From assembly GCA_051362555.1 (NCBI GenBank), contig CM120640.1, positions 24,476,225 through 24,540,224 on the forward strand: a stretch of 64,000 nucleotides of DNA, written 5' to 3'. Positions within the stretch are counted from its first letter, which is position 1. Each line of letters begins with the position of its first letter. The notes beneath the pieces were generated by a model that made no database searches, was not told the origin of the DNA, and saw only the letters and a program-made list of their open reading frames with translations. Of the stretch, positions 1-40,163 are shown one piece after another. The DNA is from Lingula anatina (lineage: Eukaryota; Animalia; Brachiopoda). Both the position numbers and the translations under genes were made by a program.

Positions 1-3000
1 CCCATCACCTCAATAAAATAAAATTTACTCACCTTAGCTTGGATCCAAGAGTGACATCCATATCAGGGTGAGGTCGCTCAGCATCTTCTTTGTACTGTAA
101 AAAGAAATGAAAAACAACATTAGATTTTTTCAATTTACCCATGTCACCATCCCCCCCCCAAAAATTTACTAACCTTAGCTTGGATCCAAGAGTGACATCC
201 ATATCAGGGTGAGGTCGCTCAGCATCTTCTTTGTACTGAAAAAAGAAATGAAAAACAAGATTAGATTTTTTCAATATACCCATCCCACCACCTCCAAAAA
301 ATAAAATTTACTCACCTTAGCTTGGATACAAGAGTGAAGTCCATGTCCGAGTGGGGTCGCTCATCATCTCCTTTGTCCTGTAAAAAGAAATGAAAAACAA
401 CATTAGTTTTTTCAATTTACCCATGTCCCATCCCAAAAAAATAAAATTTACTAACCTTAGCTTGGATCCAAGAGTGAAGTCCATGTCCGGGTGGGGTCAC
501 TCATCATCTTCTTTGTCCTGTAAAAAGAAATGAAAAACAAGATTAGATTTTTTCAATTTACCCATTCCACCACCCCCAAAAAATAAAATTTACTCACCTT
601 AGTTAGATCCAAGAGTGAAGTCCATGTCCGGGTGGGGTCGCTCATCATCTTCTTTGTCCTGTAAAAAGAAATGAAAAACAAGATTAGATTTTTTCAATAT
701 ACCCATCCTACCACCGCCAAAAAAAAAATTTACTCACATTAACTTGGATCCAAGAGTGAAGTCCATGTGCGGGTGGGGTCGCTCATCATCTTCTTTGTCC
801 TGAAAAAAGAAATGAAAAACAAGATTAGATTTTTTCAATATACCCATCCCACCACCTCCAAAAAATAAAATTTACTCACCTTAGCTTGGATCAAAGAGTG
901 ACATCCATGTCCGGGTGGGGTTGCTCAGCATCTTCTTTGTACTGTAAAAAGATATAAAAAACAAGATTAGATTTTTTCATTTTACCCATGTCACCATCCC
1001 AAAAAAATAAAATTTACTAACCTTAGCTTGGATCCAAGAGTGAAGTCCATGTCCGGGTGGGGTCACTCATCATCTTCTTTGTCCTGTAAAAAGAAATGAA
1101 AAACAACATTAGTTTTTTCAATTTACCCATTCCACCACCCCCAAAAAATAAAATTTACTCACCTCAGTTAGATCCAAGAGTGAAGTCCATGTCCGGGTGG
1201 GGTCGCTCATCATCTTCTTTGTCCTGTAAAAAGAAATGAAAAACAAGATTAGATTTTTTCAATTTACCCATAACATCAACCCCCAAAAATAAAATTTACT
1301 AACCTTAGCTTGGATCCAAGAGTGAAGTCCATGTCCGGGTGGGGTCGCTCATCATCTTCTTTGTCCTGTAAAAAGAAATGAAAAACAAGATTAGATTTTT
1401 TCAATTTACCCATCCCATCACCTCAATAAAATAAAATTTACTCACCTTAGCTTGGATCCAAGAGTGACATCCATATCAGGGTGAGGTCGCTCAGCATCTT
1501 CTTTGTACTGTAAAAAGAAATGAAAAACAACATTAGATTTTTTCAATTTACCCATGTCACCATCCCCCCCCCAAAAATTTACTAACCTTAGCTTGGATCC
1601 AAGAGTGACATCCATATCAGGGTGAGGTCGCTCAGCATCTTCTTTGTACTGAAAAAAGAAATGAAAAACAAGATTAGATTTTTTCAATATACCCATCCCA
1701 CCACCTCCAAAAAATAAAATTTACTCACCTTAGCTTGGATACAAGAGTGAAGTCCATGTCCGAGTGGGGTCGCTCATCATCTCCTTTGTCCTGTAAAAAG
1801 AAATGAAAAACAACATTAGTTTTTTCAATTTACCCATGTCCCATCCCAAAAAAATAAAATTTACTAACCTTAGCTTGGATCCAAGAGTGAAGTCCATGTC
1901 CGGGTGGGGTCACTCATCATCTTCTTTGTCCTGTAAAAAGAAATGAAAAACAAGATTAGATTTTTTCAATTTACCCATTCCACCACCCCCAAAAAATAAA
2001 ATTTACTCACCTTAGTTAGATCCAAGAGTGAAGTCCATGTCCGGGTGGGGTCGCTCATCATCTTCTTTGTCCTGTAAAAAGAAATGAAAAACAAGATTAG
2101 ATTTTTTCAATATACCCATCCTACCACCGCCAAAAAAAAAATTTACTCACATTAACTTGGATCCAAGAGTGAAGTCCATGTGCGGGTGGGGTCGCTCATC
2201 ATCTTCTTTGTCCTGAAAAAAGAAATGAAAAACAAGATTAGATTTTTTCAATATACCCATCCCACCACCTCCAAAAAATAAAATTTACTCACCTTAGCTT
2301 GGATCAAAGAGTGACATCCATGTCCGGGTGGGGTTGCTCAGCATCTTCTTTGTACTGTAAAAAGATATAAAAAACAAGATTAGATTTTTTCATTTTACCC
2401 ATGTCACCATCCCAAAAAAATAAAATTTACTAACCTTAGCTTGGATCCAAGAGTGAAGTCCATGTCCGGGTGGGGTCACTCATCATCTTCTTTGTCCTGT
2501 AAAAAGAAATGAAAAACAACATTAGTTTTTTCAATTTACCCATTCCACCACCCCCAAAAAATAAAATTTACTCACCTCAGTTAGATCCAAGAGTGAAGTC
2601 CATGTCCGGGTGGGGTCGCTCATCATCTTCTTTGTCCTGTAAAAAGAAATGAAAAACAAGATTAGTTTTTTCAATTTTCCCATCCCACCACCTCCAAAAA
2701 ATAAAATTTACTCACCTTAGCTTGGATCCAAGAGTGAAGTCCATGTCCGGTTAGGGTCGCTCATCATCTTCTTTGTACTGTAAAAAGAAATGAAAAACAA
2801 GATTAGATTTTTTCAATATACCCATCCCACCACCGCCAAAAAATAAAATTTACTCACATTAACTTGGATCCAAGAGTGAAGTCCATGTGCATGTGGGGTC
2901 GCTCATCATCTTCTTTGTACTGTAAAAAGAAATGAAAAACAAGATTAGATTTTTTTATTTTCCCATTCCACCCCCCCCACCCCCCCCCAAAAAATAAAAT

Positions 3001-6000
3001 TTCACTCACCTTAGTTAGATCCAAGAGTGAAATCCATATGTGGGTGGGGTCGCTCATCATCTTCTTTGTCCTGTAAAAAGAAATGAAAAACAAGATTAGA
3101 TTTTTTCAATTTACCCATAACATCAACCCCCAAAAATAAAATTTACTAACCTTAGCTTGGATCCAGGAGTGAAGTCCATGTCCGGGTGGGGTCGCTCATC
3201 ATCTTCTTTGTCCTGTAAAAAGAAATGAAAAACAAGATTAGATTTTTTCAATTTACCCATAACATCAACCCCCAAAAATAAAATTTACTAACCTTAGCTT
3301 GGATCCAAGAGTGACTTCGATGTATAGGTGGGGTCGCTCATCATCTTCTTTGTCCTGTAAAAAGAAATGAAAAACAAGATTAGATTTTTTCAATTTACCC
3401 TTAACATCAACCCCCAAAAATAAAATTTACTAACCTTAGCTTGGATCCAAGAGTGAAGTCCATGTCCGGGTGGGGTCGCTCATCATCTTCTTTGTCCTGT
3501 AAAAAGAAATGAAAAACAAGATTAGATTTTTTCAATTTACCCATCCCATCACCTCAATAAAATAAAATTTACTCACCTTAGCTTGGATCCAAGAGTGACA
3601 TCCATATCAGGGTGAGGTCGCTCAGCATCTTCTTTGTACTGAAAAAAGAAATGAAAAACAAGATTAGATTTTTTCAATATACCCATCCCACCACCTCCAA
3701 AAAATAAAATTTACTCACCTTAGCTTGGATACAAGAGTGAAGTCCATGTCCGAGTGGGGTCGCTCATCATCTCCTTTGTCCTGTAAAAAGAAATGAAAAA
3801 CAACATTAGTTTTTTCAATTTACCCATGTCCCATCCCAAAAAAATAAAATTTACTAACCTTAGCTTGGATCCAAGAGTGAAGTCCATGTCCGGGTGGGGT
3901 CACTCATCATCTTCTTTGTCCTGTAAAAAGAAATGAAAAACAAGATTAGATTTTTTCAATTTACCCATTCCACCACCCCCAAAAAATAAAATTTACTCAC
4001 CTTAGTTAGATCCAAGAGTGAAGTCCATGTCCGGGTGGGGTCGCTCATCATCTTCTTTGTCCTGTAAAAAGAAATGAAAAACAAGATTAGATTTTTTCAA
4101 TATACCCATCCTACCACCGCCAAAAAAAAAAAATTTACTCACATTAACTTGGATCCAAGAGTGAAGTCCATGTGCGGGTGGGGTCGCTCATCATCTTCTT
4201 TGTCCTGAAAAAAGAAATGAAAAACAAGATTAGATTTTTTCAATATACCCATCCCACCACCTCCAAAAAATAAAATTTACTCACCTTAGCTTGGATCAAA
4301 GAGTGACATCCATGTCCGGGTGGGGTTGCTCAGCATCTTCTTTGTACTGTAAAAAGAAATAAAAAACAAGATTAGATTTTTTCATTTTACCCATGTCACC
4401 ATCCCAAAAAAATAAAATTTACTAACCTTAGCTTGGATCCAAGAGTGAAGTCCATGTCCGGGTGGGGTCACTCATCATCTTCTTTGTCCTGTAAAAAGAA
4501 ATGAAAAACAACATTAGTTTTTTCAATTTACCCATTCCACCACCCCCAAAAAATAAAATTTACTCACCTTAGTTAGATCCAAGAGTGAAGTCCATGTCCG
4601 GTTAGGGTCGCTCATCATCTTCTTTGTACTGTAAAAAGAAATGAAAATCATGATTAGTTATTTTTTCAATTTACCCATCCCATACAACCAAAAAATAAAA
4701 TTTACTAACCTTATCTTGGATCCAAGAGTGAAGTCCATGTCTGGGTGGGGTCGCTCATCATCTTCTTTGTCCTGTAAAAAGAAATGAAAAACAAGATTAG
4801 TTTTTTCAATTTTCCCATCCCACCACCTCCAAAAAATAAAATTTACTCACCTTAGCTTGGATCCAAGAGTGAAGTCCATGTCCGGTTAGGGTCGCTCATC
4901 ATCTTCTTTGTACTGTAAAAAGAAATGAAAAACAAGATTAGATTTTTTCAATATACCCATCCCACCACCGCCAAAAAATAAAATTTACTCACATTAACTT
5001 GGATCCAAGAGTGAAGTCCATGTGCGGGTGGGGTCGCTCATCATCTTCTTTGTCCTGAAAAAAGAAATGAAAAACAAGATTAGATTTTTTCAATATACCC
5101 ATCCCACCAAAATTTACTCACCTTAGCTTGGATCAAAGAGTGACATCCATGTCCGGGTGGGGTTGCTCAGCATCTTCTTTGTACTGTAAAAAGAAATAAA
5201 AAACAAGATTAGATTTTTTCATTTTACCCATGTCACCATCCCAAAAAAATAAAATTTACTAACCTTAGCTTGGATTCAAGAGTGAGGTCCATGTATGGGT
5301 GGGATCGCTCATCATCTTCTTTGTCCTGTAAAAAGAAATGAAAATCATGATTAGTTTTTTTTTCAATTTACCCATCCCACCACCTCCAAAAAATAAAATT
5401 TACTCACCTTAGCTTGGATCCAAGAGTGACATCCATGTTCGGGTGGGGTTGCTCAGCATCTTCTTTGTACTGTAAAAAGAAATAAAAAACAAGATTAGAT
5501 TTTTTCATTTTACCCATGTCACCATCCCAAAAAAATAAAATTTACTAACCTTAGCTTGGATCCAAGAGTGAAGTCCATGTCCGGGTGGGGTCACTCATCA
5601 TCTTCTTTGTCCTGTAAAAAGAAATGAAAAACAACATTAGTTTTTTCAATTTACCCATTCCACCACCCCCAAAAAATAAAATTTACTCACCTCAGTTAGA
5701 TCCAAGAGTGAAGTCCATGTCCGGGTGGGGTCGCTCATCATCTTCTTTGTCCTGTAAAAAGAAATGAAAAACAAGATTAGTTTTTTCAATTTTCCCATCC
5801 CACCACCTCCAAAAAATAAAATTTACTCACCTTAGCTTGGATCCAAGAGTGAAGTCCATGTCCGGTTAGGGTCGCTCATCATCTTCTTTGTACTGTAAAA
5901 AGAAATGAAAAACAAGATTAGATTTTTTCAATATACCCATCCCACCACCGCCAAAAAATAAAATTTACTCACATTAACTTGGATCCAAGAGTGAAGTCCA

Positions 6001-9000
6001 TGTGCATGTGGGGTCGCTCATCATCTTCTTTGTACTGTAAAAAGAAATGAAAAACAAGATTAGATTTTTTTATTTTCCCATTCCACCCCCCCACCCCCCC
6101 CCAAAAAATAAAATTTCACTCACCTTAGTTAGATCCAAGAGTGAAATCCATATGTGGGTGGGGTCGCTCATCATCTTCTTTGTCCTGTAAAAAGAAATGA
6201 AAAACAAGATTAGATTTTTTCAATTTACCCATAACATCAACCCCCAAAAATAAAATTTACTCACATTAACTTGGATCCAAGAGTGAAGTCCATGTGCATG
6301 TGGGGTCGCTCATCATCTTCTTTGTCCTGTAAAAAGAAATGAAAAACAAGATTAGATTTTTTCAATTTACCCATATCATCAACCCCCAAAAATAAAATTT
6401 ACTAACCTTAGCTTGGATCCAAGAGTGACTTCGATGTATAGGTGGGGTCGCTCATCATCTTCTTTGTCCTGTAAAAAGAAATGAAAAACAAGATTAGATT
6501 TTTTCAATTTACCCTTAACATCAACCCCCAAAAATAAAATTTACTAACCTTAGCTTGGATCCAAGAGTGAAGTCCATGTCCGGGTGGGGTCGCTCATCAT
6601 CTTCTTTGTCCTGTAAAAAGAAATGAAAAACAAGATTAGATTTTTTCAATTTACCCATCCCATCACCTCAATAAAATAAAATTTACTCACCTTAGCTTGG
6701 ATCCAAGAGTGACATCCATATCAGGGTGAGGTCGCTCAGCATCTTCTTTGTACTGTAAAAAGAAATGAAAAACAACATTAGATTTTTTCAATTTACCCAT
6801 GTCACCATCCCCCCCCAAAAAATTTACTAACCTTAGCTTGGATCCAAGAGTGACATCCATATCAGGGTGAGGTCGCTCAGCATCTTCTTTGTACTGAAAA
6901 AAGAAATGAAAAACAAGATTAGATTTTTTCAATATACCCATCCCACCACCTCCAAAAAATAAAATTTACTCACCTTAGCTTGGATACAAGAGTGAAGTCC
7001 ATGTCCGAGTGGGGTCGCTCATCATCTCCTTTGTCCTGTAAAAAGAAATGAAAAACAACATTAGTTTTTTCAATTTACCCATGTCCCATCCCAAAAAAAT
7101 AAAATTTACTAACCTTAGCTTGGATCCAAGAGTGAAGTCCATGTCCGGGTGGGGTCACTCATCATCTTCTTTGTCCTGTAAAAAGAAATGAAAAACAAGA
7201 TTAGTTTTTTCAATTTTCCCATCCCACCACCTCCAAAAAATAAAATTTACTCACCTTAGCTTGGATCCAAGAGTGAAGTCCATGTCCGGTTAGGGTCGCT
7301 CATCATCTTCTTTGTACTGTAAAAAGAAATGAAAAACAAGATTAGATTTTTTCAATATACCCATCCCACCACCGCCAAAAAATAAAATTTACTCACATTA
7401 ACTTGGATCCAAGAGTGAAGTCCATGTGCATGTGGGGTCGCTCATCATCTTCTTTGTACTGTAAAAAGAAATGAAAAACAAGATTAGATTTTTTTATTTT
7501 CCCATTCCACCCCCCCACCCCCCCCCAAAAAATAAAATTTCACTCACCTTAGTTAGATCCAAGAGTGAAATCCATATGTGGGTGGGGTCGCTCATCATCT
7601 TCTTTGTCCTGTAAAAAGAAATGAAAAACAAGATTAGATTTTTTCAATTTACCCATAACATCAACCCCCAAAAATAAAATTTACTAACCTTAGCTTGGAT
7701 CCAGGAGTGAAGTCCATGTCCGGGTGGGGTCGCTCATCATCTTCTTTGTCCTGTAAAAAGAAATGAAAAACAAGATTAGATTTTTTCAATTTACCCATAA
7801 CATCAACCCCCAAAAATAAAATTTACTAACCTTAGCTTGGATCCAAGAGTGACTTCGATGTATAGGTGGGGTCGCTCATCATCTTCTTTGTCCTGTAAAA
7901 AGAAATGAAAAACAAGATTAGATTTTTTCAATTTACCCTTAACATCAACCCCCAAAAATAAAATTTACTAACCTTAGCTTGGATCCAAGAGTGAAGTCCA
8001 TGTCCGGGTGGGGTCGCTCATCATCTTCTTTGTCCTGTAAAAAGAAATGAAAAACAAGATTAGATTTTTTCAATTTACCCATCCCATCACCTCAATAAAA
8101 TAAAATTTACTCACCTTAGCTTGGATCCAAGAGTGACATCCATATCAGGGTGAGGTCGCTCAGCATCTTCTTTGTACTGTAAAAAGAAATGAAAAACAAC
8201 ATTAGATTTTTTCAATTTACCCATGTCACCATCCCCCCCCAAAAAATTTACTAACCTTAGCTTGGATCCAAGAGTGACATCCATATCAGGGTGAGGTCGC
8301 TCAGCATCTTCTTTGTACTGAAAAAAGAAATGAAAAACAAGATTAGATTTTTTCAATATACCCATCCCACCACCTCCAAAAAATAAAATTTACTCACCTT
8401 AGCTTGGATACAAGAGTGAAGTCCATGTCCGAGTGGGGTCGCTCATCATCTCCTTTGTCCTGTAAAAAGAAATGAAAAACAACATTAGTTTTTTCAATTT
8501 ACCCATGTCCCATCCCAAAAAAATAAAATTTACTAACCTTAGCTTGGATCCAAGAGTGAAGTCCATGTCCGGGTGGGGTCACTCATCATCTTCTTTGTCC
8601 TGTAAAAAGAAATGAAAAACAAGATTAGATTTTTTCAATTTACCCATTCCACCACCCCCAAAAAATAAAATTTACTCACCTTAGTTAGATCCAAGAGTGA
8701 AGTCCATGTCCGGGTGGGGTCGCTCATCATCTTCTTTGTCCTGTAAAAAGAAATGAAAAACAAGATTAGATTTTTTCAATATACCCATCCTACCACCGCC
8801 AAAAAAAAAAAATTTACTCACATTAACTTGGATCCAAGAGTGAAGTCCATGTGCGGGTGGGGTCGCTCATCATCTTCTTTGTCCTGAAAAAAGAAATGAA
8901 AAACAAGATTAGATTTTTTCAATATACCCATCCCACCACCTCCAAAAAATAAAATTTACTCACCTTAGCTTGGATCAAAGAGTGACATCCATGTCCGGGT

Positions 9001-12000
9001 GGGGTTGCTCAGCATCTTCTTTGTACTGTAAAAAGAAATAAAAAACAAGATTAGATTTTTTCATTTTACCCATGTCACCATCCCAAAAAAATAAAATTTA
9101 CTAACCTTAGCTTGGATCCAAGAGTGAAGTCCATGTCCGGTTAGGGTCGCTCATCATCTTCTTTGTACTGTAAAAAGAAATGAAAATCATGATTAGTTAT
9201 TTTTTCAATTTACCCATCCCATACAACCAAAAAATAAAATTTACTAACCTTATCTTGGATCCAAGAGTGAAGTCCATGTCTGGGTGGGGTCGCTCATCAT
9301 CTTCTTTGTCCTGTAAAAAGAAATGAAAAACAAGATTAGTTTTTTCAATTTTCCCATCCCACCACCTCCAAAAAATAAAATTTACTCACCTTAGCTTGGA
9401 TCCAAGAGTGAAGTCCATGTCCGGTTAGGGTCGCTCATCATCTTCTTTGTACTGTAAAAAGAAATGAAAAACAAGATTAGATTTTTTCAATATACCCATC
9501 CCACCACCGCCAAAAAATAAAATTTACTCACATTAACTTGGATCCAAGAGTGAAGTCCATGTGCGGGTGGGGTCGCTCATCATCTTCTTTGTCCTGAAAA
9601 AAGAAATGAAAAACAAGATTAGATTTTTTCAATATACCCATCCCACCAAAATTTACTCACCTTAGCTTGGATCAAAGAGTGACATCCATGTCCGGGTGGG
9701 GTTGCTCAGCATCTTCTTTGTACTGTAAAAAGAAATAAAAAACAAGATTAGATTTTTTCATTTTACCCATGTCACCATCCCAAAAAAATAAAATTTACTA
9801 ACCTTAGCTTGGATTCAAGAGTGAGGTCCATGTATGGGTGGGATCGCTCATCATCTTCTTTGTCCTGTAAAAAGAAATGAAAATCATGATTAGTTTTTTT
9901 TTCAATTTACCCATCCCACCACCTCCAAAAAATAAAATTTACTCACCTTAGCTTGGATCCAAGAGTGACATCCATGTTCGGGTGGGGTTGCTCAGCATCT
10001 TCTTTGTACTGTAAAAAGAAATAAAAAACAAGATTAGATTTTTTCATTTTACCCATGTCACCATCCCAAAAAAATAAAATTTACTACCCTTAGCTTGGAT
10101 CCAAGAGTGAGGTCCATGTCAGGGTGGGGTCACTCATCATCTTCTTTGTCCTGTAAAAAGAAATGAAAAACAAGATTAGATTTTTTCAATTTACCCATCC
10201 CATCACCTCCAAAAAATAAAATTAACTCACCTCAGCTTGGATCCAAGAGTGACATCCATGTCCAGGTGAGGTCGCTCATCATCTTCTTTGTCCTGTAAAA
10301 AGAAATGAAAAACAAGATTAGATTTTTTCAATTTACCCATCCCACCACCCAAAAGAAATAAAATTTACTAACCTTAGCTTGGATCCAAGAGTGAAGTCCA
10401 TGTCCGGTTAGGGTCGCTCATCATCTTCTTTGTCCTGTAAAAAGAAATGAAAAACAAGATTAGATTTTTTCAATTTTCCCATCCCACCACCTCCAAAAAA
10501 TAAAATTTACTCACCTTAGCTTGGATCCAAGAGTGAAGTCCATGTCCGGGTGGGGTTGCTCAGCATCTTCTTTGTACTGTAAAAAGAAATAAAAAACAAG
10601 ATTAGATTTTTTCATTTTACCCATGTCACCATTCCAAAAAAATAAAATTTACTAACCTTATCTTGGATCCAAGAGTGAGGTCCATGTCTGGGTGGGATCT
10701 TCTTTGTCCTGTAAAAAGAAATGAAAATCATGATTAGTTTTTTTTTCAATTTACCCATCCCACCACCTCCAAAAAATTAAATTTACTCACCTTAGCTTGG
10801 ATCCAAGAGTGACATCCATGTTCGGGTGGGGTTGCTCAGCATCTTCTTTATACTGTAAAAAGAAATAAAAAACAAGATTAGATTTTTTCATTTTACCCAT
10901 GTCACCATCCCAAAAAAATAAAATTTACTAACCTTAGCTTGGATCCAAGAGTGAGGTCTATGTCCGGGTGGGGTCGCTCATCATCTTCTTTGTCCTGTTA
11001 AAAGAAATGAAAATCATGATTAGTTATTTTTTCAATTTACCCATCCCATACAACCAAAAAATAAAATTTACTAACCTTATCTTGGATCCAAGAGTGAAGT
11101 CCATGTCTGGGTGGGGTCGCTCATCATCTTCTTTGTCCTGTAAAGAGAAATGAAAAACAATATTAGATTTTTTCAATATACCCATCCCACCACCTCCAAA
11201 AAATAAAATTTACTAACCTTAGCTTAGATCCAAGAGTGAGGTCCATGTCTGGGTGGGATTGCTCATCCTGTTAAAAGAAATGAAAATCATGATTAGTTAT
11301 TTTTTCAATTTACCCATCCCATACAACCAAAAAATAAAATTTACTAACCTTATCTTGGATCCAAGAGTGAAGTCCATGTCTGGGTGGGGTCGCTCATCAT
11401 CTTCTTTGTCCTGTAAAGAGAAATGAAAAACAATATTAGATTTTTTCAATATACCCATCCCATCACCTCCAAAAAATAAAATTTACTCACCTTAGCTTGG
11501 ATCCAAGAGTGACTTTATTGTCCAGGTGGGGTCGCTCATCATCTTCCTTGCCCTTTAAAAAGAAATGAAAAACAAGATTAGATTTTTTCAATTTACCCAT
11601 CCCACCACCCAAAAAGAATAAAATTAACTAACCTTAGCTTGGATCCAAGAGTGAGGTCCATGTCAGGGTGGGGTCACTCATCATCTTCTTTGTCCTGTAA
11701 AAAGAAATGAAAAACAAGATTAGATTTTTTCAATTTACCCATCCCATCACCTCCAAAAAATAAAATTAACTCACCTCAGCTTGGATCCAAGAGTGACATC
11801 CATGTCCAGGTGAGGTCGCTCATCATCTTCTTTGTCCTGTAAAAAGAAATGAAAAACAAGATTAGATTTTTTCAATTTACCCATCCCACCACCCAAAAGA
11901 AATAAAATTTACTAACCTTAGCTTGGATCCAAGAGTGAAGTCCATGTCCGGTTAGGGTCGCTCATCATCTTCTTTGTCCTGTAAAAAGAAATGAAAAACA

Positions 12001-14136: not shown

Positions 14137-14167
<31 letters not shown>

Positions 14168-17100
14168 AAATTACTGACCTTAGCTTGGATTCAAGAGTGA
14201 CTTCGATGTCTCGGTGGGGTCGCTCATCATCTCCTTTGTCCTGTAAAAAGAAATGAAAAACAACATAAGTTTTTTCAATTTACCCATGTCCCATCCCAAA
14301 AAAATAAAATTTACTAACCTTAGCTTGGATCCAAGAGTGAAGTCCATGTCCGGGTGGGGTCACTCATCATCTTCTTTGTCCTGTAAAAAGAAATGAAAAA
14401 CAAGATTAGATTTTTTCAATTTACCCATTCCACCACCCCCAAAAAATAAAATTTACTCACCTTAGTTAGATCCAAGAGTGAAGTCCATGTCCGGGTGGGG
14501 TCGCTCAACATCTTCTTTGTCCTGTAAAAAGAAATGAAAAACAAGATTAGATTTTTTCAATATACCCATCCCACCACCGCCAAAAAAAAAAATTTACTCA
14601 CATTAACTTGGATCCAAGAGTGAAGTCCATGTGCGGGTGGGGTCGCTCATTATCTTCTTTGTCCTGAAAAAAGAAATGAAAAACAAGATTAGATTTTTTC
14701 AATATACCCATCCCACCACCTCCAAAAAATAAAATTTACTCACCTTAACTTGGATCAAAGAGTGACATCCATGTCCGGGTGGGGTTGCTCAGCATCTTCT
14801 TTGTACTGTAAAAAGAAATAAAAAACAAGATTAGATTTTTTCATTTTACCCATGTCACCATCCCAAAAAAATAAAATTTACTAACCTTAGCTTGGATCCA
14901 AGAGTGAAGTCCATGTCCGGGTGGGGTCGCTCATCATCTTCTTTGTACTGTAAAAAGAAATGAAAAACAAGATTAGATTTTTTCAATATACACATCCCAC
15001 CACCGCCAAAAAATAAAATTTACTCACATTAACTTGGATCCAAGAGTGAAGTCCATGTGCGGGTGGGGTTGCTCATCATCTTCTTTGTCCTGAAAAAAGA
15101 AATGAAAAACAAGATTAGATTTTTTCAATTTACCCATCCCATCACCTCCAAAAAATAAAATTAACTCACCTCAGCTTGGATCCAAGAGTGACATCCATGT
15201 CCAGGTGAGGTCGCTCATCATCTTCTTTGTCCTGTAAAAAGAAATGAAAAACAAGATTAGATTTTTTCAATTTACCCATCCCACCACCCAAAAGAAATAA
15301 AATTTACTAACCTTAGCTTGGATCCAAGAGTGAAGTCCATGTCCGGTTAGGGTCGCTCATCATCTTCTTTGTCCTGTAAAAAGAAATGAAAAACAAGATT
15401 AGATTTTTTCAATTTTCCCATCCCACCACCTCCAAAAAATAAAATTTACTCACCTTAGCTTGGATCCAAGAGTGAAGTCCATGTCCGGGTGGGGTTGCTC
15501 AGCATCTTCTTTGTACTGTAAAAAGAAATAAAAAACAAGATTAGATTTTTTCATTTTACCCATGTCACCATTCCAAAAAAATAAAATTTACTAACCTTAT
15601 CTTGGATCCAAGAGTGAGGTCCATGTCTGGGTGGGATCTTCTTTGTCCTGTAAAAAGAAATGAAAATCATGATTAGTTTTTTTTTCAATTTACCCATCCC
15701 ACCACCTCCAAAAAATTAAATTTACTCACCTTAGCTTGGATCCAAGAGTGACATCCATGTTCGGGTGGGGTTGCTCAGCATCTTCTTTATACTGTAAAAA
15801 GAAATAAAAAACAAGATTAGATTTTTTCATTTTACCCATGTCACCATCCCAAAAAAATAAAATTTACTAACCTTAGCTTGGATCCAAGAGTGAGGTCTAT
15901 GTCCGGGTGGGGTCGCTCATCATCTTCTTTGTCCTGTTAAAAGAAATGAAAATCATGATTAGTTATTTTTTCAATTTACCCATCCCATACAACCAAAAAA
16001 TAAAATTTACTAACCTTATCTTGGATCCAAGAGTGAAGTCCATGTCTGGGTGGGGTCGCTCATCATCTTCTTTGTCCTGTAAAGAGAAATGAAAAACAAT
16101 ATTAGATTTTTTCAATATACCCATCCCACCACCTCCAAAAAATAAAATTTACTAACCTTAGCTTAGATCCAAGAGTGAGGTCCATGTCTGGGTGGGATTG
16201 CTCATCCTGTTAAAAGAAATGAAAATCATGATTAGTTATTTTTTCAATTTACCCATCCCATACAACCAAAAAATAAAATTTACTAACCTTATCTTGGATC
16301 CAAGAGTGAAGTCCATGTCTGGGTGGGGTCGCTCATCATCTTCTTTGTCCTGTAAAGAGAAATGAAAAACAATATTAGATTTTTTCAATATACCCATCCC
16401 ATCACCTCCAAAAAATAAAATTTACTCACCTTAGCTTGGATCCAAGAGTGACTTTATTGTCCAGGTGGGGTCGCTCATCATCTTCCTTGCCCTTTAAAAA
16501 GAAATGAAAAACAAGATTAGATTTTTTCAATTTACCCATCCCACCACCCAAAAAGAATAAAATTAACTAACCTTAGCTTGGATCCAAGAGTGAAGCCCAT
16601 GTCCGGGTGGGGTCGCTCATCATCTTCTTTGTCCTGTAAAAAGAAATGAAAAACAAGATTAGATTTTTTCAATTTATCCATAACATTAACCCCCAAAAAT
16701 AAAATTTACTAACCTTAGCCTGGATCCAAGACTGACTTCGATGTTTGGGTGGGGTCACTCATCATCTTCTTTGTCCTGTAAAAAGAAATGAAAAACAAAA
16801 TTAGATTTTTTCAATATACCCATCCCACCAACGCCAAAAAATAAAATTTACTAACCTTAGCTTGGATCCAAGAGCGAAGTCCATGTCCGGGTGGGGTCGC
16901 TCATCATCTTCTTTGTCCTGTAAAAAGAAATAAAAAACAAGATTAAATTTTTTCAATATACCCATCCCACCAACGCCAAAAAATAAAATTTACTAACCTT
17001 AGCTTGGATCCAAGAGCGAAGTCCATGTCCGGGTGGGGTCGCTCATCATCTTCTTTGTCCTGTAAAAAGAAATGAAAAACGAGATTAAATTTTTTCAATA

Positions 17101-20100
17101 TACCCATCCCACCACCTCCAAAAAATAAAATTTACTCACCTTAGCCTGGAGCCAAGAGTGAAGTCCAAGTCCGGTTGGGGTCGCTCATCATCTTCTTTGT
17201 CCTGTAAAAAAAAATGAAAAACAAGTTTAGATTTTATTTTCCCGTTCAACCACCCCCAAAAAATAAAATTTACTCACCTTAGCTTGGTTCCAAATGTGAA
17301 GTCCATGTCCAGGTGGTGTCGCTCATCATCTTCCTGTAAAAAGAAATAAAAAACAAGATTAGATTTCTTTAATTTACCCATATCACCATTCCATAAAAAT
17401 AAAATTTACTAACCTTAGCTTGGTTCGAAGAGTGAAGTCCATGTCTGGGTGGGGTCCCTAATCATCTTTTTTTGTCCTGTAAAAAGAAAAAAAAAATATT
17501 AGATTTTTTTGCAATTTACCCATCTTAACCCCCCCCCCCCCCCCCAAAAAAAAAAAAATTACTGACCTTAGCTTGGATTCAAGAGTGACTTCGATGTCTC
17601 GGTGGGGTCGCTCATCATCTCCTTTGTCCTGTAAAAAGAAATGAAAAACAACATAAGTTTTTTCAATTTACCCATGTCCCATCCCAAAAAAATAAAATTT
17701 ACTAACCTTAGCTTGGATCCAAGAGTGAAGTCCATGTCCGGGTGGGGTCACTCATCATCTTCTTTGTCCTGTAAAAAGAAATGAAAAACAAGATTAGATT
17801 TTTTCAATTTACCCATTCCACCACCCCCAAAAAATAAAATTTACTCACCTTAGTTAGATCCAAGAGTGAAGTCCATGTCCGGGTGGGGTCGCTCAACATC
17901 TTCTTTGTCCTGTAAAAAGAAATGAAAAACAAGATTAGATTTTTTCAATATACCCATCCCACCACCGCCAAAAAAAAAAATTTACTCACATTAACTTGGA
18001 TCCAAGAGTGAAGTCCATGTGCGGGTGGGGTCGCTCATTATCTTCTTTGTCCTGAAAAAAGAAATGAAAAACAAGATTAGATTTTTTCAATATACCCATC
18101 CCACCACCTCCAAAAAATAAAATTTACTCACCTTAACTTGGATCAAAGAGTGACATCCATGTCCGGGTGGGGTTGCTCAGCATCTTCTTTGTACTGTAAA
18201 AAGAAATAAAAAACAAGATTAGATTTTTTCATTTTACCCATGTCACCATCCCAAAAAAATAAAATTTACTAACCTTAGCTTGGATCCAAGAGTGAAGTCC
18301 ATGTCCGGGTGGGGTCGCTCATCATCTTCTTTGTACTGTAAAAAGAAATGAAAAACAAGATTAGATTTTTTCAATATACACATCCCACCACCGCCAAAAA
18401 ATAAAATTTACTCACATTAACTTGGATCCAAGAGTGAAGTCCATGTGCGGGTGGGGTTGCTCATCATCTTCTTTGTCCTGAAAAAAGAAATGAAAAACAA
18501 GATTAGATTTTTTCAATATACCCATCCCACCACCTCCAAAAAATAAAATTTACTCACCTTAGCTTGGATCAAAGAGTGACATCCATGTCCGGGTGGGGTT
18601 GCTCAGCATCTTCTTTGTACTGTAAAAAGAAATAAAAAACAAGATTAGATTTTTTCATTTTAAACATGTCACCATCCCAAAAAAATAAAATTTACTAACC
18701 TTAGCTTGGATTCAAGAGTGAGGTCCATGTATGGGTGGGATCGCTCATCATCTTCTTTGTCCTGTAAAAAGAAATGAAAATCATGATTAGTTTTTTTTTC
18801 AATTTACCCATCCCACCACCTCCAAAAAATAAAATTTACTCACCTTAGCTTGGATCCAAGAGTGACATCCATGTTCGGGTGGGGTTGCTCAGCATCTTCT
18901 TTGTCCTGTAAAAAGAAATGAAAAACAAGATTAGATTTTTTCAATTTACCCATCCCACCACCCAAAAGAAATAAAATTTACTAACCTTAGCTTGGATCCA
19001 AGAGTGAAGTCCATGTCCGGTTAGGGTCGCTCATCATCTTCTTTGTCCTGTAAAAAGAAATGAAAAACAAGATTAGATTTTTTCAATTTTCCCATCCCAC
19101 CACCTCTAAAAAATAAAATTTACTCACCTTAGCTTGGATCCAAGAGTGAAGTCCATGTCCGGGTGGGGTTGCTCAGCATCTTCTTTGTACTGTAAAAAGA
19201 AATAAAAAACAAGATTAGATTTTTTCATTTTACCCATGTCACCATTCCAAAAAAATAAAATTTACTAACCTTAGCTTGGATCCAAGAGTGAGGTCCATGT
19301 CTGGGTGGGATCTTCTTTGTCCTGTAAAAAGAAATGAAAATCATGATTAGTTATTTTTTCAATTTACCCATCCCATACAACCAAAAAATAAAATTTACTA
19401 ACCTTAGTTTGGATCCAAGAGTGAGGTCCATGTCCGGGTGGGGTCGCTCATCATCTTCTTTGTCCTGTTAAAAGAAATGAAAATCATGATTAGTTATTTT
19501 TTCAATTTACCCATCCCATACAACCAAAAAATAAAATTTACTAACCTTATCTTGGATCCAAGAGTGAAGTCCATGTCTGGGTGGGGTCGCTCATCATCTT
19601 CTTTGTCCTGTAAAGAGAAATGAAAAACAATATTAGATTTTTTCAATATACCCATCCCACCACCTCCAAAAAATAAAATTTACTAACCTTAGCTTAGATC
19701 CAAGAGTGAGGTCCATGTCTGGGTGGGGTCACTCATCATCTTCTTTGTCCTGTAAAAAGAAATGAAAAACAAGATTAGATTTTTTCAATTTACCTATCCC
19801 ATCACCTCCAAAAAATAAAATTTACTCACCTTAGCTTGGATCCAAGAGTGACTTTATTGTCCAGGTGGGGTCGCTCATCATCTTCTTTGTCCTGTAAAGA
19901 GAAATGAAAAACAATATTAGATTTTTTCAATTTACCCATCCCACCACCCAAAAAGAATAAAATTAACTAACCTTAGCTTGGATCCAAGAGTGAAGCCCAT
20001 GTCCGGGTGGGGTCGCTCATCATCTTCTTTGTCCTGTAAAAAGAAATGAAAAACAAGATTAGATTTTTTCAATTTATCCATAACATTAACCCCCAAAAAT

Positions 20101-20781
20101 AAAATTTACTAACCTTAGCCTGGATCCAAGACTGACTTCGATGTTTGGGTGGGGTCACTCATCATCTTCTTTGTCCTGTAAAAAGAAATGAAAAACAAAA
20201 TTAGATTTTTTCAATATACCCATCCCACCAACGCCAAAAAATAAAATTTACTAACCTTAGCTTGGATCCAAGAGCGAAGTCCATGTCCGGGTGGGGTCGC
20301 TCATCATCTTCTTTGTCCTGTAAAAAGAAATGAAAAACGAGATTAAATTTTTTCAATATACCCATCCCACCACCTCCAAAAAATAAAATTTACTCACCTT
20401 AGCCTGGAGCCAAGAGTGAAGTCCCAGTCCGGTTGGGGTCGCTCATCATCTTCTTTGTCCTGTAAAAAAAAATGAAAAACAAGTTTAGATTTTATTTTCC
20501 CGTTCAACCACCCCCAAAAAATAAAATTTACTCACCTTAGCTTGGTTCCAAATGTGAAGTCCATGTCCAGGTGGTGTCGCTCATCATCTTCCTGTAAAAA
20601 GAAATAAAAAACAAGATTAGATTTCTTTAATTTACCCATATCACCATTCCATAAAAATAAAATTTACTAACCTTAGCTTGGTTCGAAGAGTGAAGTCCAT
20701 GTCTGGGAGGGGTCCCTAATCATCTTTTTTGTCCTGTAAAAAGAAAAAAAAATATTAGATTTTTTTGCAATTTACCCATCT

Positions 20782-20814
<33 letters not shown>

Positions 20815-23800
20815 AAAAAAAAAAAATTACTGACCTTAGCTTGGATTCAAGAGTGACTTCGATGTCTGGGTGGGGTCGCTCATCATCTCCTTTGTCCTGT
20901 AAAAAGAAATAAAAAACAACATTAGTTTTTTTCAATTTACCCATGTCCCATCCCAAAAAAATAAAATTTACTAACCTTAGCTTGGATCCAAGAGTGAAGT
21001 CCATGTCCGGGTGGGGTCACTCATCATCTTCTTTGTCCTGTAAAAAGAAATGAAAAACAAGATTAGTTTTTTCAATTTACCCATTCCACCACCCCAAAAA
21101 AATAAAATTTACTAACCTTAGCTTGGATCCAAGAGTGACATCCATGTCCGGGTGGGGTCGCTCATCATCTTCTTTGTCCTGTAAAAAAAATGAAAAACAA
21201 GATTTGTTTTTTCAATTTTCCCATCCCACCACCTCAAAAAAATAAAATTTACCCACCTTAGCTTGGATCCAAGAGTGAAGTCCATGTCCGGTTAGGGTCG
21301 CTCATCATCTTCTTTGTACTGTAAAAAGAAATGCAAAACAAGATTAGATTTTTTCAATATACCCATCCCACCACCGCCAAAAAATAAAATTTACTCACAT
21401 TAACTTGGATCCAAGAGTGAAGTCCATGTGCGGTTGGGGTCGCTCATCATATTCTTTGTCCTGAAAAAAGAAATGAAAAACAAGATTAGATTTTTTCATT
21501 TTACCCATGTCACCATCCCAAAAAAATAAAATTTACTAACCTTAGCTTGGATCCAAGAGTGAGGTCCATGTCTGGGTGGGATCGCTCATCATCTTCTTTG
21601 TCCTGTAAAAAGAAATGAAAGATGATTAGTTTTTTTTTCAATTTACCCATCCCACCACCTCCAAAAAATAAAATTTACTCACCTTAGCTTGGATCCAAGA
21701 GTGACATCCATGTTCAGGTGGGGTTGCTCAGCATCTTCTTTGTACTGTAAAAAGAAATAAAAAACAAGATTAGATTTTTTCATTTTACCCATGTCACCAT
21801 CCCAAAAAAATAAAATTTACTAACCTTAGCTTGGATCCAAGAGTGAGGTCCATGTCCGGGTGGGGTCGCTCATCATCTTCTTTGTCCTGTAAAAAGAAAT
21901 GAAAAACAAGATTAGATTTTTTCAATTTACCCATCCCATCACCTCCAAAAAATAAAATTAACTCACCTCAGCTTGGATCCAAGAGTGACATCCATGTCCA
22001 GGTGAGGTCGCTCATCATCTTCTTTGTCCTGTAAAAAGAAATGAAAAACAAGATTAGATTTTTTCAATTTACCCATCCCACCACCCAAAAGAAATAAAAT
22101 TTACTAACCTTAGCTTGGATCCAAGATTGAAGTCCATGTCCCTTTGGGGTCGCTCATCATCTTCTTTGTCCTGTAAAAAGAAATGAAAAACAAGATTAGT
22201 TTTTTCAATTTTCCCATCCCACCACCTCCAAAAAATAAAATTTACTCACCTTAGCCTGGAGCCAAGAGTGAAGTCCAAGTCCGGTTGGGGTCGCTCATCA
22301 TCTTCTTTGTCCTGTAAAAAGAAATGAAAAACAAGATTAGATTTTTTTAAATTTACCCATGTCACCATCCCAATAAAATAAAATTCACTCACCTTAGCTT
22401 TGATCCAAGAGTGACATCCACGTCCGGGTGGGGTCGCTCATCATCTTTGTACTGTAAAAAGAAATGAAAAACAAGATTAGATTTTTTCAATATACCCATC
22501 CCACCACCGCCAAAAAATAAAATTTACTCACATTAACTTGGATCCAAGAGTGACATCCATGTCCGGGTGGGGTCGCTCATCATCTTCTTTGTCCTGTAAA
22601 AAGAAATGAAAAACAAGATTAGATTTTTTCAATATACCCATCCCACCACCTCCAAAAAATAAAATTTACTAACCTTAGCTTGGATCCAAGAGTGAGGTCC
22701 ATGTCTGGGTGGGATCGCTCATCATCTTCTTTGTCCTGTAAAAAGAAATGAAAATCATGATTAGTTTTTTTTTCAATTTACCCATCCCATACAACCAAAA
22801 AATAAAATTTACTAACCTCAGCTTGGATCCAAGAGTGACATCCATGTCCGGGTGGGGTCGCTCATCATCTTCTTTGTCCTGTAAAAAGAAATGAAAAACA
22901 AGATTACATTTTTTCAATTTACCCATGTCACCATCCCAATAAAATAAAATTCACTCACCTTAGCTTTGATCCAAGAGTGACATCCATGTCCGGGTGGGGT
23001 CGCTCATCATCTTCTTTGTCCTGTAAAAAGAAATGAAAAACAAGATTAGATTTTTTCAATTTACCCATCCCATACAACCAAAAAATAAAATTTACTAACC
23101 TCAGCTTGGATCCAAGAGTGACATCCATGTCCGGGTGGGGTCGCTCATCATCTTCTTTGTCCTGTAAAAAGAAATGAAAAACAAGATTAGATTTTTTCAA
23201 TTTACCCATCCCACCACCCAAAAGGAATAAAATTTACTAACCTTAGCTTGGATCCAAGATTGAAGTCCATGTCCCTTTGGGGTCGCTCATCATCTTCTTT
23301 GTCCTGTAAAAAGAAATGAAAAACAAGATTAGTTTTTTCAATTTTCCCATCCCACCTCCTCCAAAAAATAAAATTTACTCACCTTAGCCTGGAGCCAAGA
23401 GTGACATCCATGTCCGGGTGGGGTCGCTCATCATCTTCTTTGTCCTGTAAAAAGAAATGAAAAACAAGATTACATTTTTTCAATTTACCCATGTCACCAT
23501 CCCAATAAAATAAAATTCACTCACCTTAGCTTTGATCCAAGAGTGACATCCATGTCCGGGTGGGGTCGCTCATCATCTTCTTTGTACTGTAAAAAGAAAT
23601 GAAAAACAAGATTAGATTTTTTCAATATTCCCATCCCACCACCGCCAAAAAATAAAATTTACTCACATTAACTTGGATCCAAGAGTGACATCCATGTCCG
23701 GGTGGGGTCGCTCATCATCTTCTTTGTCCTGTAAAAAGAAATGAAAAACAAGATTAGATTTTTTCAATATACCCATCCCACCACCTCCAAAAAATAAAAT

Positions 23801-26800
23801 TTACTAACCTTAGCTTGGATCCAAGAGTGAGGTCCATGTCTGGGTGGGATCGCTCATCATCTTCTTTGTCCTGTAAAAAGAAATGAAAATCATGATTAGT
23901 TTTTTTTTCAATTTACCCATCCCATACAACCAAAAAATAAAATTTACTAACCTTATCTTGGATCCAAGAGTGAAGTCTATGTCTGGGTGGGGTCGCTCAT
24001 CATCTTCTTTGTCCTGTAAAGAGAAATGAAAAACAATATTAGATTTTTTCAATATACCCATCCCACCACCGCCAAAAAAATAAAATTTACTCACATTAAC
24101 TTGGATCCAAGAGTGACATCCATGTCCGGGTGGGGTCGCTCATCATCTTCTTTGTCCTGTAAAAAGAAATGAAAAACAAGATTAGATTTTTTCAATATAC
24201 CCATCCCACCACCTCCAAAAAATAAAATTTACTAACCTTAGCTTGGATCAAAGAGTGAGGTCCATGTCTGGGTGGGATCGCTCATCATCTTCTTTGTCCT
24301 GTAAAAAGAAATGAAAATCATGATTAGTTTTTTTTTCAATTTACCCATCCCATACAACCAAAAAATAAAATTTACTAACCTTATCTTGGATCCAAGAGTG
24401 AAATCAATGTCTGGGTGGGGTCGCTCATCATCTTCTTTGTCCTGTAAAGTGAAATGAAAAACAATATTAGATTTTTTCAATTTACCCATCCCACCACCCA
24501 AAAGGAATAAAATTTACTAACCTTAGCTTGGATCCAAGATTGAAGTCCATGTCCGGGTGGGGTCGCTCATCATCTTCTTTGTCCTGTAAAAAGAAATGAA
24601 AAACAAGATTAGTTTTTTCAATTTTCCCATCCCACCACCTCCAAAAAATAAAATTTACTCACCTTAGCCTGGAGCCAAGAGTGAAGTCCATGTCCGGTTG
24701 GGGTCGCTCATCATCTTCTTTGTCCTGTAAAAAGAAATGAAAAACAAGATTAGATTTTTTTCAATTTACCCATGTCACCATCCCAAAAAAAATAAAATTC
24801 ACTCACCTTAGCTTTGATCCAAGAGTGACATCCATGTCCGGGTGGGGTCGCTCATCATCTTCTTTGTACTGTAAAAAGAAATGAAAAACAAGATTAGATT
24901 TTTTCAATTTACCCATCCCACCACCGCCAAAAAATAAAATTTACTCACATTAACTTGGATCCAAGAGTGAAGTCCGTGTGCGGGTGGGGTCGCTCATCAT
25001 CTTCTTTGTCCTGTAAAAAGAAATGAAAAACAAGATTAGATTTTTTCAATATACCCATCCCACCACCTCCAAAAAATAAAATTTACTAACCTTAGCTTGG
25101 ATCCAAGAGTGAGGTCCATGTCTGGGTGGGATCGCTCATCATCTTCTTTGTCCTGTTAAAAGAAATGAAAATCATGATTAGTTTTTTTTTCAATTTACCC
25201 ATCCCATACAACCAAAAAATAAAATTTACTAACTTTATCTTGGATCCAAGAGTGAAGTCCATGTCTGGGTGGGGTCGCTCATCATCTTCTTTGTCCTGTT
25301 AAGAGAAATGAAAAACAATATTAGATTTTTTCAATATACCCATCCCACCACCTCCAAAAAATAAAATTTACTAACCTTAGCTTAGATCCAAGAGTGAGGT
25401 CTATGTCTGGGTGGGATCGCTCATCATCTTCTTTGTCCTGTAAAAAGAAATGAAAATCATGATTAGTTTTTTTTTTCAATTTACCCATCCCATACCACCA
25501 AAAAATAAAATTTACTAACCTTATCTTGGATCCAAGAGTGAAGTCCATGTCTGGGTGGGGTCGCTCATCATCTTCTTTGTCCTGTAAAGTGAAATGAAAA
25601 ACAATATTAGATTTTTTCAATTTACCCATCCCACCACCTCCAAAAAATAAAATTTACTCACCTTAGCTTGGATCCAAGAGTGACATCCATGTCCGGGTGG
25701 GGTCGCTCATCATCTTCTTTGTACTGTAAAAAGAAATAAAAAACAAGATTAGATTTTTTCAATTTACCCATGTCACCATCCCAAAAAAATAAATTTACTA
25801 ACCTTAGCTTGGATCCAAGAGTGAAGTCCATGTCCGGGTGGGGTCGCTCATCATCTTCTTTGTCCTGTAAAAAGAAATGAAGAACAAGATTAGATTTTTT
25901 CAATTTACCCATGTCACCATCCCAAAAAAATAAATTTACTAACCTTAGCTTGGATCCAAGAGTGAAGTCTATGTCCGGGTGGGGTCACTCATCATCTTCT
26001 TTGTCCTGTAAAAAGAAATGAAAAACAAGATTAGATTTTTTCAATTTACCTATCCCATCACCTCCAAAAAATAAAATTTACTCACCTTAGCTTGGATCCA
26101 AGAGTGACTTTATTGTCCAGGTGGGGTCGCTCATCATCTTCCTTGCCCTTTAAAAAGAAATGAAAAACAAGATTAGATTTTTTCAATATACCCATCCCAC
26201 CACCCAAAAAGAATAAAATTTACTAACCTCAGCTTGGATCCAAGAGTGAAGTCCATGTCTGGGTGGGGTCGCTCATCATCTTCTTTGTCCTGTAAAAAGA
26301 AATGAAAAACAAGATTAGATTTTTTCAATTTATCCATAACATTAACCCCCAAAAATAAAATTTACTAACCTTAGCCTGGATCCAAGACTGACTTCGATGT
26401 TTGGGTGGGGTCACTCATCATCTTCTTTGTCCTGTAAAAAGAAATGAAAAACAAGATTAGATTTTTTCAATATACCCATCCCACCACCGCCAAAAAATAA
26501 AATTTACTAACCTTAGCTTGGATCCAAGAGCGAAGTCCATGTCCGGGTGGGGTCGCTCATCATCTTCTTTGTCCTGTAAAAAGAAATGAAAAACAAGATA
26601 AGATTTTTTTTATTTTCCCATTCCACCACCCCCAAAAAATAAAATTTACTCACCTTAGCTTGGATCCAAGTGTGCAGTTCATGTCCAGGTGGGGTTGCTC
26701 ATCATCTTCTTTGTCCTGTAAAAAGAAATGAAAAACGAGATTAGATTTTTTCAATTTACCCATCCCACCACCTCCAAAAAATAAAATTTACTCACCTTAG

Positions 26801-27180
26801 CTTGGATCCAAGAGTGACATCCATGTCCGGGTGGGGTTGCTCATCATCTTCTTTTTACTGTAAAAAGAAATAAAAAACAAGATTAGATTTTTTCAATTTA
26901 CCCATGTCACCATCCCAAAAAAATAAAATTTACTAACCTTAGCTTGGATCCAAGTGTGCGGTCTATGTCCAGGTGGGGTTGCTTATCACCTTCTTTGTCC
27001 TGTAAAAAGAAATGAAAAACAAGATTAGATTTTTTCAATTTACCCATCCCACCACCCCAAAAAAATATACTTACTAACCTTTAATTCTTGATCCAATAAC
27101 TAGTCCATGTCTGTATAGAGTTGATCAGGAGATTTTTTTTCAATTTACAACCCACCCACCCCCCCTTCCAAAAAAACTAT
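1..27180. repeat. Tandem satellite array, ~141-142 bp monomer, ~190 copies, with higher-order repeats; continues beyond the left edge
   Basis: Monomer consensus (+): AAAAAATAAAATTTACT(C/A)ACCTTAGCTTGGATCCAAGAGTGAAGTCCATGTCCGGGTGGGGTCGCTCATCATCTTCTTTGTCCTGTAAAAAGAAATGAAAAACAAGATTAGATTTTTTCAATTTACCCATCCCACCACCTCC. GGATCC recurs at 41, 182 and so on. Identical ORF-track hits recur at spacings of 1413, 1424, 1544, 3395 and 3531 bp. The array decays at ~27060-27180. Confidence 0.99.
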
Positions 27181-27184
27181 AAAA

Positions 27185-29560: not shown

Positions 29561-30760
29561 GTTATTTATTTATTTTTTTTTATTATTTTTTTTGTGTGAA
29601 AATTTTTATCTTTCACATATTGGAATTTTCCATGTAGGACTTAGAGCTCCCTTGGGCATGAAGCCCAGTGGTAATCAAATTTTCTTAATGTCCATGTTTT
29701 TAAAAGTAGGTATTTAAAAATTGGTGGTATTTATATTATGTAATGTTGCATCAAAATTGACAAAAAAAATACTTTGTGCTCTGTCACCATTAACGTTATG
29801 GAAATAAAACTGTGTTATTTAACTAGTCTTACAAAAATGATCCTTAGGATTTACATACAGCACATATTAGATAACCAGCTCTATTGGATTATCATTGTTA
29901 TTAAATTTATGCATTTTTTGTGACATTTTCATTTTTCTCTTTCTGGCACTTTCTAAGTGTAAACTTGAACTCTGATGGGCCTGAAGCCTTATGCTTTTAC
30001 TTTCATCGGTGTTACCTGTTGTGCATAATTAAAATTTGATGTTGACTATGCAGTTAAACATAATGTATTATTGCATCAGAATTGGCAGTCTCTTATTTTG
30101 TGCATTATTATTTTCTGCTTTTCTTAAGGTGTGACTTATGGGCCTGAAGATCTTTGATAGACAAATTTATATATCAAACTCAAAGATTAAAAGTTTGAAT
30201 AGCAACTTCATTGGAATTATATTTCTGATATGTTTTCTTTGTAATTTTTTCTCAAACACTGGCATTTTTAAGATGTGACTTTTAACTCCCATCCACCTGA
30301 GGCTCTGTATTTCCACATAAGCAGTTGTATTGGTATTTATGTTTTTAAACATTATGTAATATTATTTTATGCACTGTCATCATTTTTTATATATTGGGAC
30401 TTTCATCATGTGAATTTGAACTCTCATGGTCCTGAAACTGTAATCTTATTGAAGGGGTGGATTGGGACCATCTTTTGGGTCTCCTGGAAGATGGTCAGAT
30501 TTGAAAGTTTACATTGATGGGTATCTATTTTTTTCTTTCTGTTGGAAGACCATCAAAATGAAGGATGGATCAACATAGATACTTTGGAATTCTGTCAGAA
30601 AATATCTCTGGATCCGCCCCTGTTATTGACCATGTTACCTGTTGTGCATGATTAAAATTCAGTGTTGACTGACTGTGCTATTATAAGCATTATTTATTAT
30701 TGCATCAAAATTGACAAAATTACCTATTTTGCATCTTTATTTTCAGTTTTTTGTCTGTAC
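29360..30760 (+). repeat. Degenerate direct repeats (~300-350 bp spacing) related to the inverted-repeat arm
   Basis: TTGCATCA(A/G)AATTG recurs at ~29393, ~29746, ~30071 and ~30700. GTTACCTGTTGTGCAT occurs at 30011 and 30634. Confidence 0.7.
30452..30622. mobile_element. MITE with CAGGGGCGGAT-type termini
   Basis: Left end AAGGGGTGGAT, right end ATCCGCCCCTG, flanked on both sides by TTATTG (6-bp target-site duplication). Confidence 0.7.
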
Positions 30761-31797: not shown

Positions 31798-32007
31798 AGG
31801 GCACAATCCCATAGATTTTAGAACGATCTATCCCCGTGGGGAGTCTCACTAGATTACTGTCAGATAATCCGGCTTAAATGTCGTTCTGCCTACTACAAGG
31901 TGTAAAGGGGTAATTAACTTCCATGCATTTGACTGTAATTTAGTGTGAACCCCCAAGGAGTTAGGTTGATCTAGTAAGAACGATCTAAATCTCTGGGAAT
32001 GCCCTCT
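31798..32007. mobile_element. MITE family A, copy 1 (TA-flanked, Tc1/mariner-like by target site)
   Basis: Imperfect TIRs AGGGCACAATCCCATAGATTT ... AAATCTCTGGGAATGCCCTCT with TA on each side. The internal sequence is the reverse complement of 41808-42024. Confidence 0.85.

Positions 32008-37622: not shown

Positions 37623-37705
<83 letters not shown>

Positions 37706-40091: not shown

Positions 40092-40163
<72 letters not shown>

Follow-up and report, generated by a model that had tools for sequence, protein, structure and literature searches.

Background

Higher-order-repeat satellite DNA is built from a monomer of fixed length, with duplications of whole blocks of monomers and degenerate units at its edges. 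Among spliced non-coding RNAs, the human C19MC host gene is made of many near-identical exons: in the portions of its description considered here, a 123-nt exon is similar to 37 segments, and alternative splicing leaves some exon copies skipped in ESTs (PMC2691840). The 116HG or IPW-A exon array of the SNORD116 host gene consists of tandem non-coding exons, and the accessible parts of two accounts have its spliced RNA staying at the locus (PMC3792690, PMC9369261). In Firre, repeat-derived exons make up 7 of 13 exons in human and 11 of 23 in mouse, and the repeat, RRD, is described in the available text as a nuclear retention signal (PMC4820808).

Here we analyze the window, a 64,000-nt stretch of DNA that begins with an array of tandem exon-intron units on its minus strand. 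On balance we lean towards reading this array as the product of a satellite-like expansion in which a single internal exon, together with its intron, multiplied inside a spliced, low-level, non-coding minus-strand gene; this gene likely starts from a CpG island 1.2 kb upstream.

Results

Architecture of the array

Tandem Repeats Finder calls the array with a period of 142 and 191.2 copies. The earlier note had put it at about 190 tandem exon-intron units on the minus strand, which the 191 monomers of 142 nt bear out, and the boundaries that it drew for the first exon and intron are exact (Table 1). As the array continues past the left edge of the window, 191 monomers is a minimum; of the units extracted, 190 are full, and the truncated last one is left out of all counts. 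The exon is 62 nt long in 164 of the 190 units (61 nt in 13, 50-59 nt in 11 and 63 nt in two) and the intron 80 nt in 122 of 189 (78-82 nt in 178). There are 109 distinct sequences among the units, with a mean pairwise difference of 12%. Near-identical pairs concentrate at lags of 24, 10, 32, 11 and 35 units; the higher-order blocks are 10-, 11-, 24-, 32- and 35-mers, and many block copies are 100% identical. These blocks were duplicated recently, or in part by the assembler. With its length, head-to-tail order, fixed monomer and higher-order structure, the array qualifies as a satellite.

Table 1. Features of the array and of its upstream flank (window coordinates; a colon marks the exon-intron boundary)
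Feature	Position	Strand	Remarks
Tandem array of exon (62 nt) + intron (~80 nt) monomers, higher-order blocks	1-27081	-	tandem-repeat call
Exon of left-most complete unit (example)	33-94	-	AG at 96-95, GT at 32-31
Intron preceding left-most complete exon (example, 79 nt)	95-173	-	
Read-placement stretch: exon tail, intron, exon head	1179-1348	-	acceptor 1224/1223; joints and loose ends 1221-1225
5'-most intact repeat exon (unit u0)	26938-26999	-	
Degenerate edge unit	27079-27190	-	branch/pyrimidine/AG block and exon head lost; donor kept
Inverted repeat, left arm	27170-27847	.	would lie in intron 1
CpG island over upstream exon	27750-28900	.	CpG o/e 0.72-0.98
Unique upstream exon, 3' end	28273-28303	-	donor GG:GTTAGT at 28272; 5-read loose end, agreement 0.97
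Inverted repeat, right arm	28874-29576	.	

Splice signals and their conservation

Read on the minus strand, the unit presents in order a branch motif, a pyrimidine tract, YAG, the 62-nt exon and AG:GT(T/G)AGT. The acceptor AG is found in 190/190 units, as are the donor letters G+1, G+5 and T+6, with T+2 in 189/190; both splice dinucleotides are kept in 189/190, in line with the earlier statement that AG and GT are mostly retained, and every splice-site variant listed with it recurs here. Donor position +3 is T in 95 units, G in 92 and C in three. In 167 of 189 introns, a branch-like YTRAY motif is found 25 nt from the 3' end. The complete signal set (pyrimidine tract, YAG, branch motif and AG:GT[AGT]AGT), whose definition was fixed post hoc, after the monomer had been seen, is present on the minus strand only; it turns up in one of 20,000 dinucleotide-shuffled monomers, on either strand, and in none of 258 equal-sized pieces from the remainder of the window.

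The AG and GT columns together hold a single variant allele against the 4.0-4.6 expected from base-matched columns of the monomer; the P values of this deficit, which are rough because the monomers are related and recombining, are 0.019-0.043 under three background choices and 0.002-0.008 once G+5 is added, and a tree-based version yields 0.011 and 0.001, respectively. When donor +3 is counted as well, P is 0.025-0.066 for alleles, and for carriers, at 0.5-0.8, the signal disappears. Conservation of the pyrimidine tract is borderline (P 0.05-0.06), and that of the branch motif does not exceed other columns of the monomer (P 0.58). Invariant columns number 24 of the 142, and exon columns are as variable as intron columns. 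Six types of multi-base deletion leave the splice sites intact and are too few to weigh as evidence. An association between donor positions -1 and +3 was dropped, as it may reflect a single event. The per-column comparison, which had been proposed beforehand as a check, thus finds the splice dinucleotides less variable than base-matched columns, and provides moderate evidence for selection on the splice columns.

Coding potential and small-RNA cargo

Stops occur in 62 of 190 exons in frame 0, the frame least often closed, in 173 in frame 1 and in 186 in frame 2. Hence the claim that stops fall in two of the three frames is right for frames 1 and 2, but the DKEDDE frame is also broken (62/190). 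Frame-0 alleles comprise 14 synonymous, 51 non-synonymous and 3 stop changes against neutral values of 16.1, 49.9 and 2.0; the allele classes fit the neutral expectation in every frame, and the longest stop-free run obtained by chaining every exon is 96 codons. No frame of the array is under coding constraint, and the stop counts, neutral alleles and short open runs agree with the proposal that chained splicing would be non-coding. A bank of mutually exclusive coding exons constitutes the Dscam-like class. No single frame kept between constant coding exons was found here, and the idea of such a bank is contradicted by the frame-0 stops, the neutral alleles and a stop in the upstream exon.

A 110-aa read-through frame spanning two exons, about 40 residues of which are exon signal, has no protein relatives at E<=1 among longer proteins and no match in Pfam. 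Two weak protein matches to this frame proved on inspection to be unrelated repeats, and a metagenome motif scan returned a single match (L001) whose context is unrelated.

An Rfam search of 24000-34000 yielded 13 matches with E values of 5 or less, none of which comes near the gathering score. Four intron stretches fold worse than their shuffles (z +1.1 to +1.6), and one exon and one monomer fold no better than theirs. By folding, the short intron does not form the end-to-end hairpin of a mirtron, and neither Rfam nor folding finds a miRNA hairpin or snoRNA in each intron, as a host gene would have. The suggested small-RNA precursor accordingly fares poorly, with no Rfam match near threshold and introns that fold worse than shuffles. 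A reading of the exon itself as a C/D snoRNA (ATGATGA ... CTAA/CTGA) was rejected: its D-like box CTGA occurs in only 10/190 units and its C-like box is broken in about 30/190.

RNA reads on the repeat

Reads from four of nine raw-read runs with the same species label (6-30% of each run) were placed at 85% likeness on a stretch comprising 45 nt of exon tail, the intron and 45 nt of the next exon head (Table 1). The numbers placed were 60 in run X1, two in X4, 22 in X7 and three in X9. In X1, depth with the first mate on the plus strand reaches 52 versus at most 2 on the minus, a pattern that, for a conventionally stranded library, corresponds to minus-strand transcripts; the geometry of the joints, with AG/GT on the minus strand only, independently agrees. 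At the predicted acceptor, depth in this run declines from about 52 to about 30. From this acceptor, five reads continue into 30 letters identical to 28274-28303; at the same acceptor lie a period-62 exon-exon joint (4 reads, 4 starts), a period-63 exon-exon joint (4 reads, 2 starts) and loose-end groups of six and five reads that read as exon tails. In about 20 X1 reads the acceptor is joined to the tail of a diverged family exon, of 62 or 63 nt. In this species the monomer family functions as an exon-intron unit, and the use of the predicted acceptor by X1 reads supports the genic origin and minus-strand transcription that had been claimed. Joints were listed from 3 reads with 2 starts upward; every listed splice joint comes from the single run X1, with none among those listed for X4, X7 and X9 (2, 22 and 3 reads). 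Both X4 reads cross the intron unspliced.

At column 47, 25 of 37 X1 reads bear a letter present in 0/190 window units, and hence most of the placed reads come from other members of the family. The tails joined to the acceptor differ from the window monomers: by eye, those of the 62 type have A at column 77 versus C in 190/190 window units, and others belong to 63-nt types. Units of the window type are represented by unspliced period-142 reads, seven in X1, all 7/7 on one strand, and one in X7. No window-type exon-to-exon joint, skipping the intron, is among the joints listed in X1, X4, X7 and X9. On the placement stretch, 150 of 189 adjacent unit pairs pass the 85% cut, and the exon-tail depth is only 8-17. 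This depth excludes for X1, however the joints are called, a fully chained transcript, which would have about 150 detectable joints per upstream-exon joint, and tells, together with the missing joint, against the many-exon chain through the window copies that the earlier note had envisaged. Repeated non-coding exons in a spliced transcript are thus found for the family, through the X1 joints, without listed exon-exon joints of the window type. The sampled animals may carry different alleles.

Reads of X1, X7 and X9 on 1204-1242 have in common a set of variant letters that belongs to yet another diverged member of the family. This member has a different exon body and intron interior (loose ends in X1 and X7), crosses the acceptor unspliced and is absent from the window.

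Upstream exon and CpG island

The read sequence joined to the acceptor matches 28274-28303 exactly (30/30), 1.2 kb upstream of the array and in matching orientation. This upstream exon is likely the first exon of the gene. The CpG island over it, with flanks (27001-27750 and 29001-30750) at a CpG o/e of 0.0-0.3, would be the promoter. The exon has a stop eight codons before the joint in repeat frame 0; the longest ATG-initiated ORF in 28273-28900 has 40 aa, and the ORFs around the exon give no Pfam match above cut-off. The exon end (28273-28310, minus strand) resembles the tail of a repeat exon and has the same GTTAGT donor, with a local score reached by 0.4% of 3000 random 64-mers; judged by this likeness, the upstream exon may be a remote copy of the repeat exon.

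The CpG island is framed by inverted arms of about 700 nt, 76% identical over 727 columns. The arms and the 1-kb island resemble a fold-back or non-autonomous transposon-type element supplying a promoter, and short arm pieces recur at 29670-32210. The inverted-repeat element of the upstream exon may be multi-copy, in which case even its joint could stem from a sister locus.

The edge unit and a possible 63-nt ancestor

The degenerate edge unit ends in a 63-nt-type tail, whose translation, DQLYTDMD*LLDQELK, contains an in-frame stop. By eye, the RNA reads include spliced 63-nt exons with this same tail type that are open in frame 0. The two observations together hint that the ancestor was an in-frame 63-nt exon of 21 codons and that the 62-nt unit is a frameshifted derivative.

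CpG landscape and neighboring genes

The CpG o/e of the array, 0.2-0.4, is like that of the adjacent gene bodies, with 0.56-0.9 beyond 44 kb. This depletion would fit gene-body methylation in an invertebrate, a likely clade judged from the mosaic CpG pattern, the methylation being presumed as well. Near 44 kb the ratio steps up, 0.2-0.6 giving way to 0.56-0.9 (44000-64000), in what looks like a mosaic methylation-like boundary. On the plus strand, consecutive exons in 34032-41655 match, in order, FAD/NAD monooxygenase-like, biotin-lipoyl, biotin-ligase and BPL_N families, several of them below curated cut-offs; these exons may belong to a single, unusual fusion gene whose C-terminal part is BPL_N. 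A DUF6314 exon (32370-33029, minus strand, E 2e-19) and the monooxygenase-like gene point away from each other on either side of a second CpG-rich stretch (~33250-34250), and the DUF6314 and monooxygenase/biotin-ligase genes are flanked by a 200-nt inverted repeat pair (31804-32002 and 41813-42018, 82.5%).

Discussion

Origin and possible role of the array

If the array is the satellite-like expansion of an internal exon and intron that we favor, unequal crossing-over would have multiplied the unit first and entire blocks afterwards. Few repeat exons would then enter the mature RNA, chiefly older, diverged ones located past the edge of the window, or else on a different allele or at a sister locus. 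Most of the young block would be skipped, or would keep its introns, in a scarce RNA that probably stays in the nucleus. A weak selective pressure to retain AG and GT could keep the 27-kb stretch processed as exon and intron. The gene would then operate in the manner of the SNORD116 and C19MC hosts with their repeated exons, minus any small RNA in the introns. One possible role, by analogy, is chromatin retention through many U1 sites, an effect reported for mammalian lncRNAs in the accessible part of 10.1101/310433.

A bolder proposal, which we regard as unlikely, would make the locus a host gene free of cargo, in which a first exon in the CpG island feeds at least 200 interchangeable 62-nt exons, descended from a 63-nt coding exon that lost its frame; splice sites would be selected without protein or small RNA, and splicing itself would be the product. 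Alternatively, the whole block might be spliced in the right tissue or from the right allele, with selection keeping every site and the loading of splicing factors on hundreds of exons as the function, in a nuclear scaffold like 116HG or Firre. The reduced variability of AG, GT and G+5 against base-matched columns, the retention of both dinucleotides in all units but one and the splicing of family exons to one another are consistent with such a functional many-exon lncRNA, and the sampled animals may have had other alleles or the tissue may have been wrong. However, exon columns vary like intron columns, the exon-tail depth stays low, and with 150/189 pairs detectable the five upstream joints would predict several hundred chain joints, none of which is listed; we give this account, too, little credence. 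At the opposite extreme, the array could descend from a gene but be an inert satellite, transcribed only as background read-through, with the spliced RNA coming wholly from another locus and AG and GT reflecting a few founder monomers. This is improbable. In its favor, most placed reads are not of the window type, those that are being few and unspliced; 24 of the 142 columns are invariant in any case; and the unit at the 5' end is degenerate. Against it, the upstream exon joined in the reads matches the window 30/30 at 1.2 kb upstream, in the right orientation, with a proper donor and a CpG island. Moreover, the unspliced window-type reads of X1 keep to one strand (7/7), and the splice columns are conserved beyond base-matched chance.

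The 63-nt exons raise the further possibility, in our view a rather slim one, of a coding repeat gene that has decayed wholly or in part. An ancestral phase-0 exon of 63 nt would have encoded an acidic 21-residue repeat; after a net loss of 1 nt the 62-nt unit would have been amplified, and a sister locus may still code. Family exons of 63 nt do occur in the period-63 joint, and also with a homologous intron after them; their tails are open in frame 0, a tail of this type is also found on the edge unit, and frame 0 is the one least often closed. Nevertheless, an exon whose length is a multiple of three and which has one open frame would arise fairly often by chance (we estimate about 1 in 4), and the reads give no run of consecutive 63-nt exons. 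The lack of coding constraint in the array, the stop of the upstream exon in that frame and the absence of a detected protein relative, though the query held only about 40 exon residues, also weigh against coding.

Under the favored reading of an expanded exon and intron, the locus would be a satellite born from a gene's own exon-intron unit, with the parent promoter, first exon and splicing still traceable. It thus offers one place to ask how new satellite monomers originate, and also whether non-coding splice sites are selected without a protein or an intronic small RNA. If the block were ever spliced through, few known non-coding transcripts would have more exons.

Comparison with known systems

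The array resembles higher-order satellites in its 142-nt monomer, 12% mean divergence, block duplications and degenerate edge unit. Unlike them, it has a complete exon-intron unit as its monomer, and the family acceptor is joined in RNA to the adjacent unique exon. A word search of open-access titles and abstract openings found no description of a satellite with a whole exon-intron monomer.

In the portions of the C19MC account considered, the unit measures 400-700 nt and its introns carry pre-miRNAs, whereas the unit here is 142 nt, in at least 191 head-to-tail copies with higher-order blocks, and its intron of about 80 nt shows no hairpin and no Rfam match. With 116HG, as far as it is covered by the same accessible texts, the array shares tandem non-coding exons, and retention at the locus may serve as a model for the role of the array RNA; the 116HG introns, however, carry C/D snoRNAs, and none is detectable in the introns of the array. 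Because the array shares the architecture of a host gene but shows no intronic cargo by Rfam or folding, we do not class it as one. Firre, going by the available part of its description, is like the array in having repeat-derived exons in a lncRNA. Pairs of family exons are joined in X1, in reads of 150 nt that are too short for counting repeat exons per transcript. The Firre RRD, in contrast, is a discontinuous local repeat, and the array is a tandem satellite of exon plus intron with a more than tenfold higher copy number.
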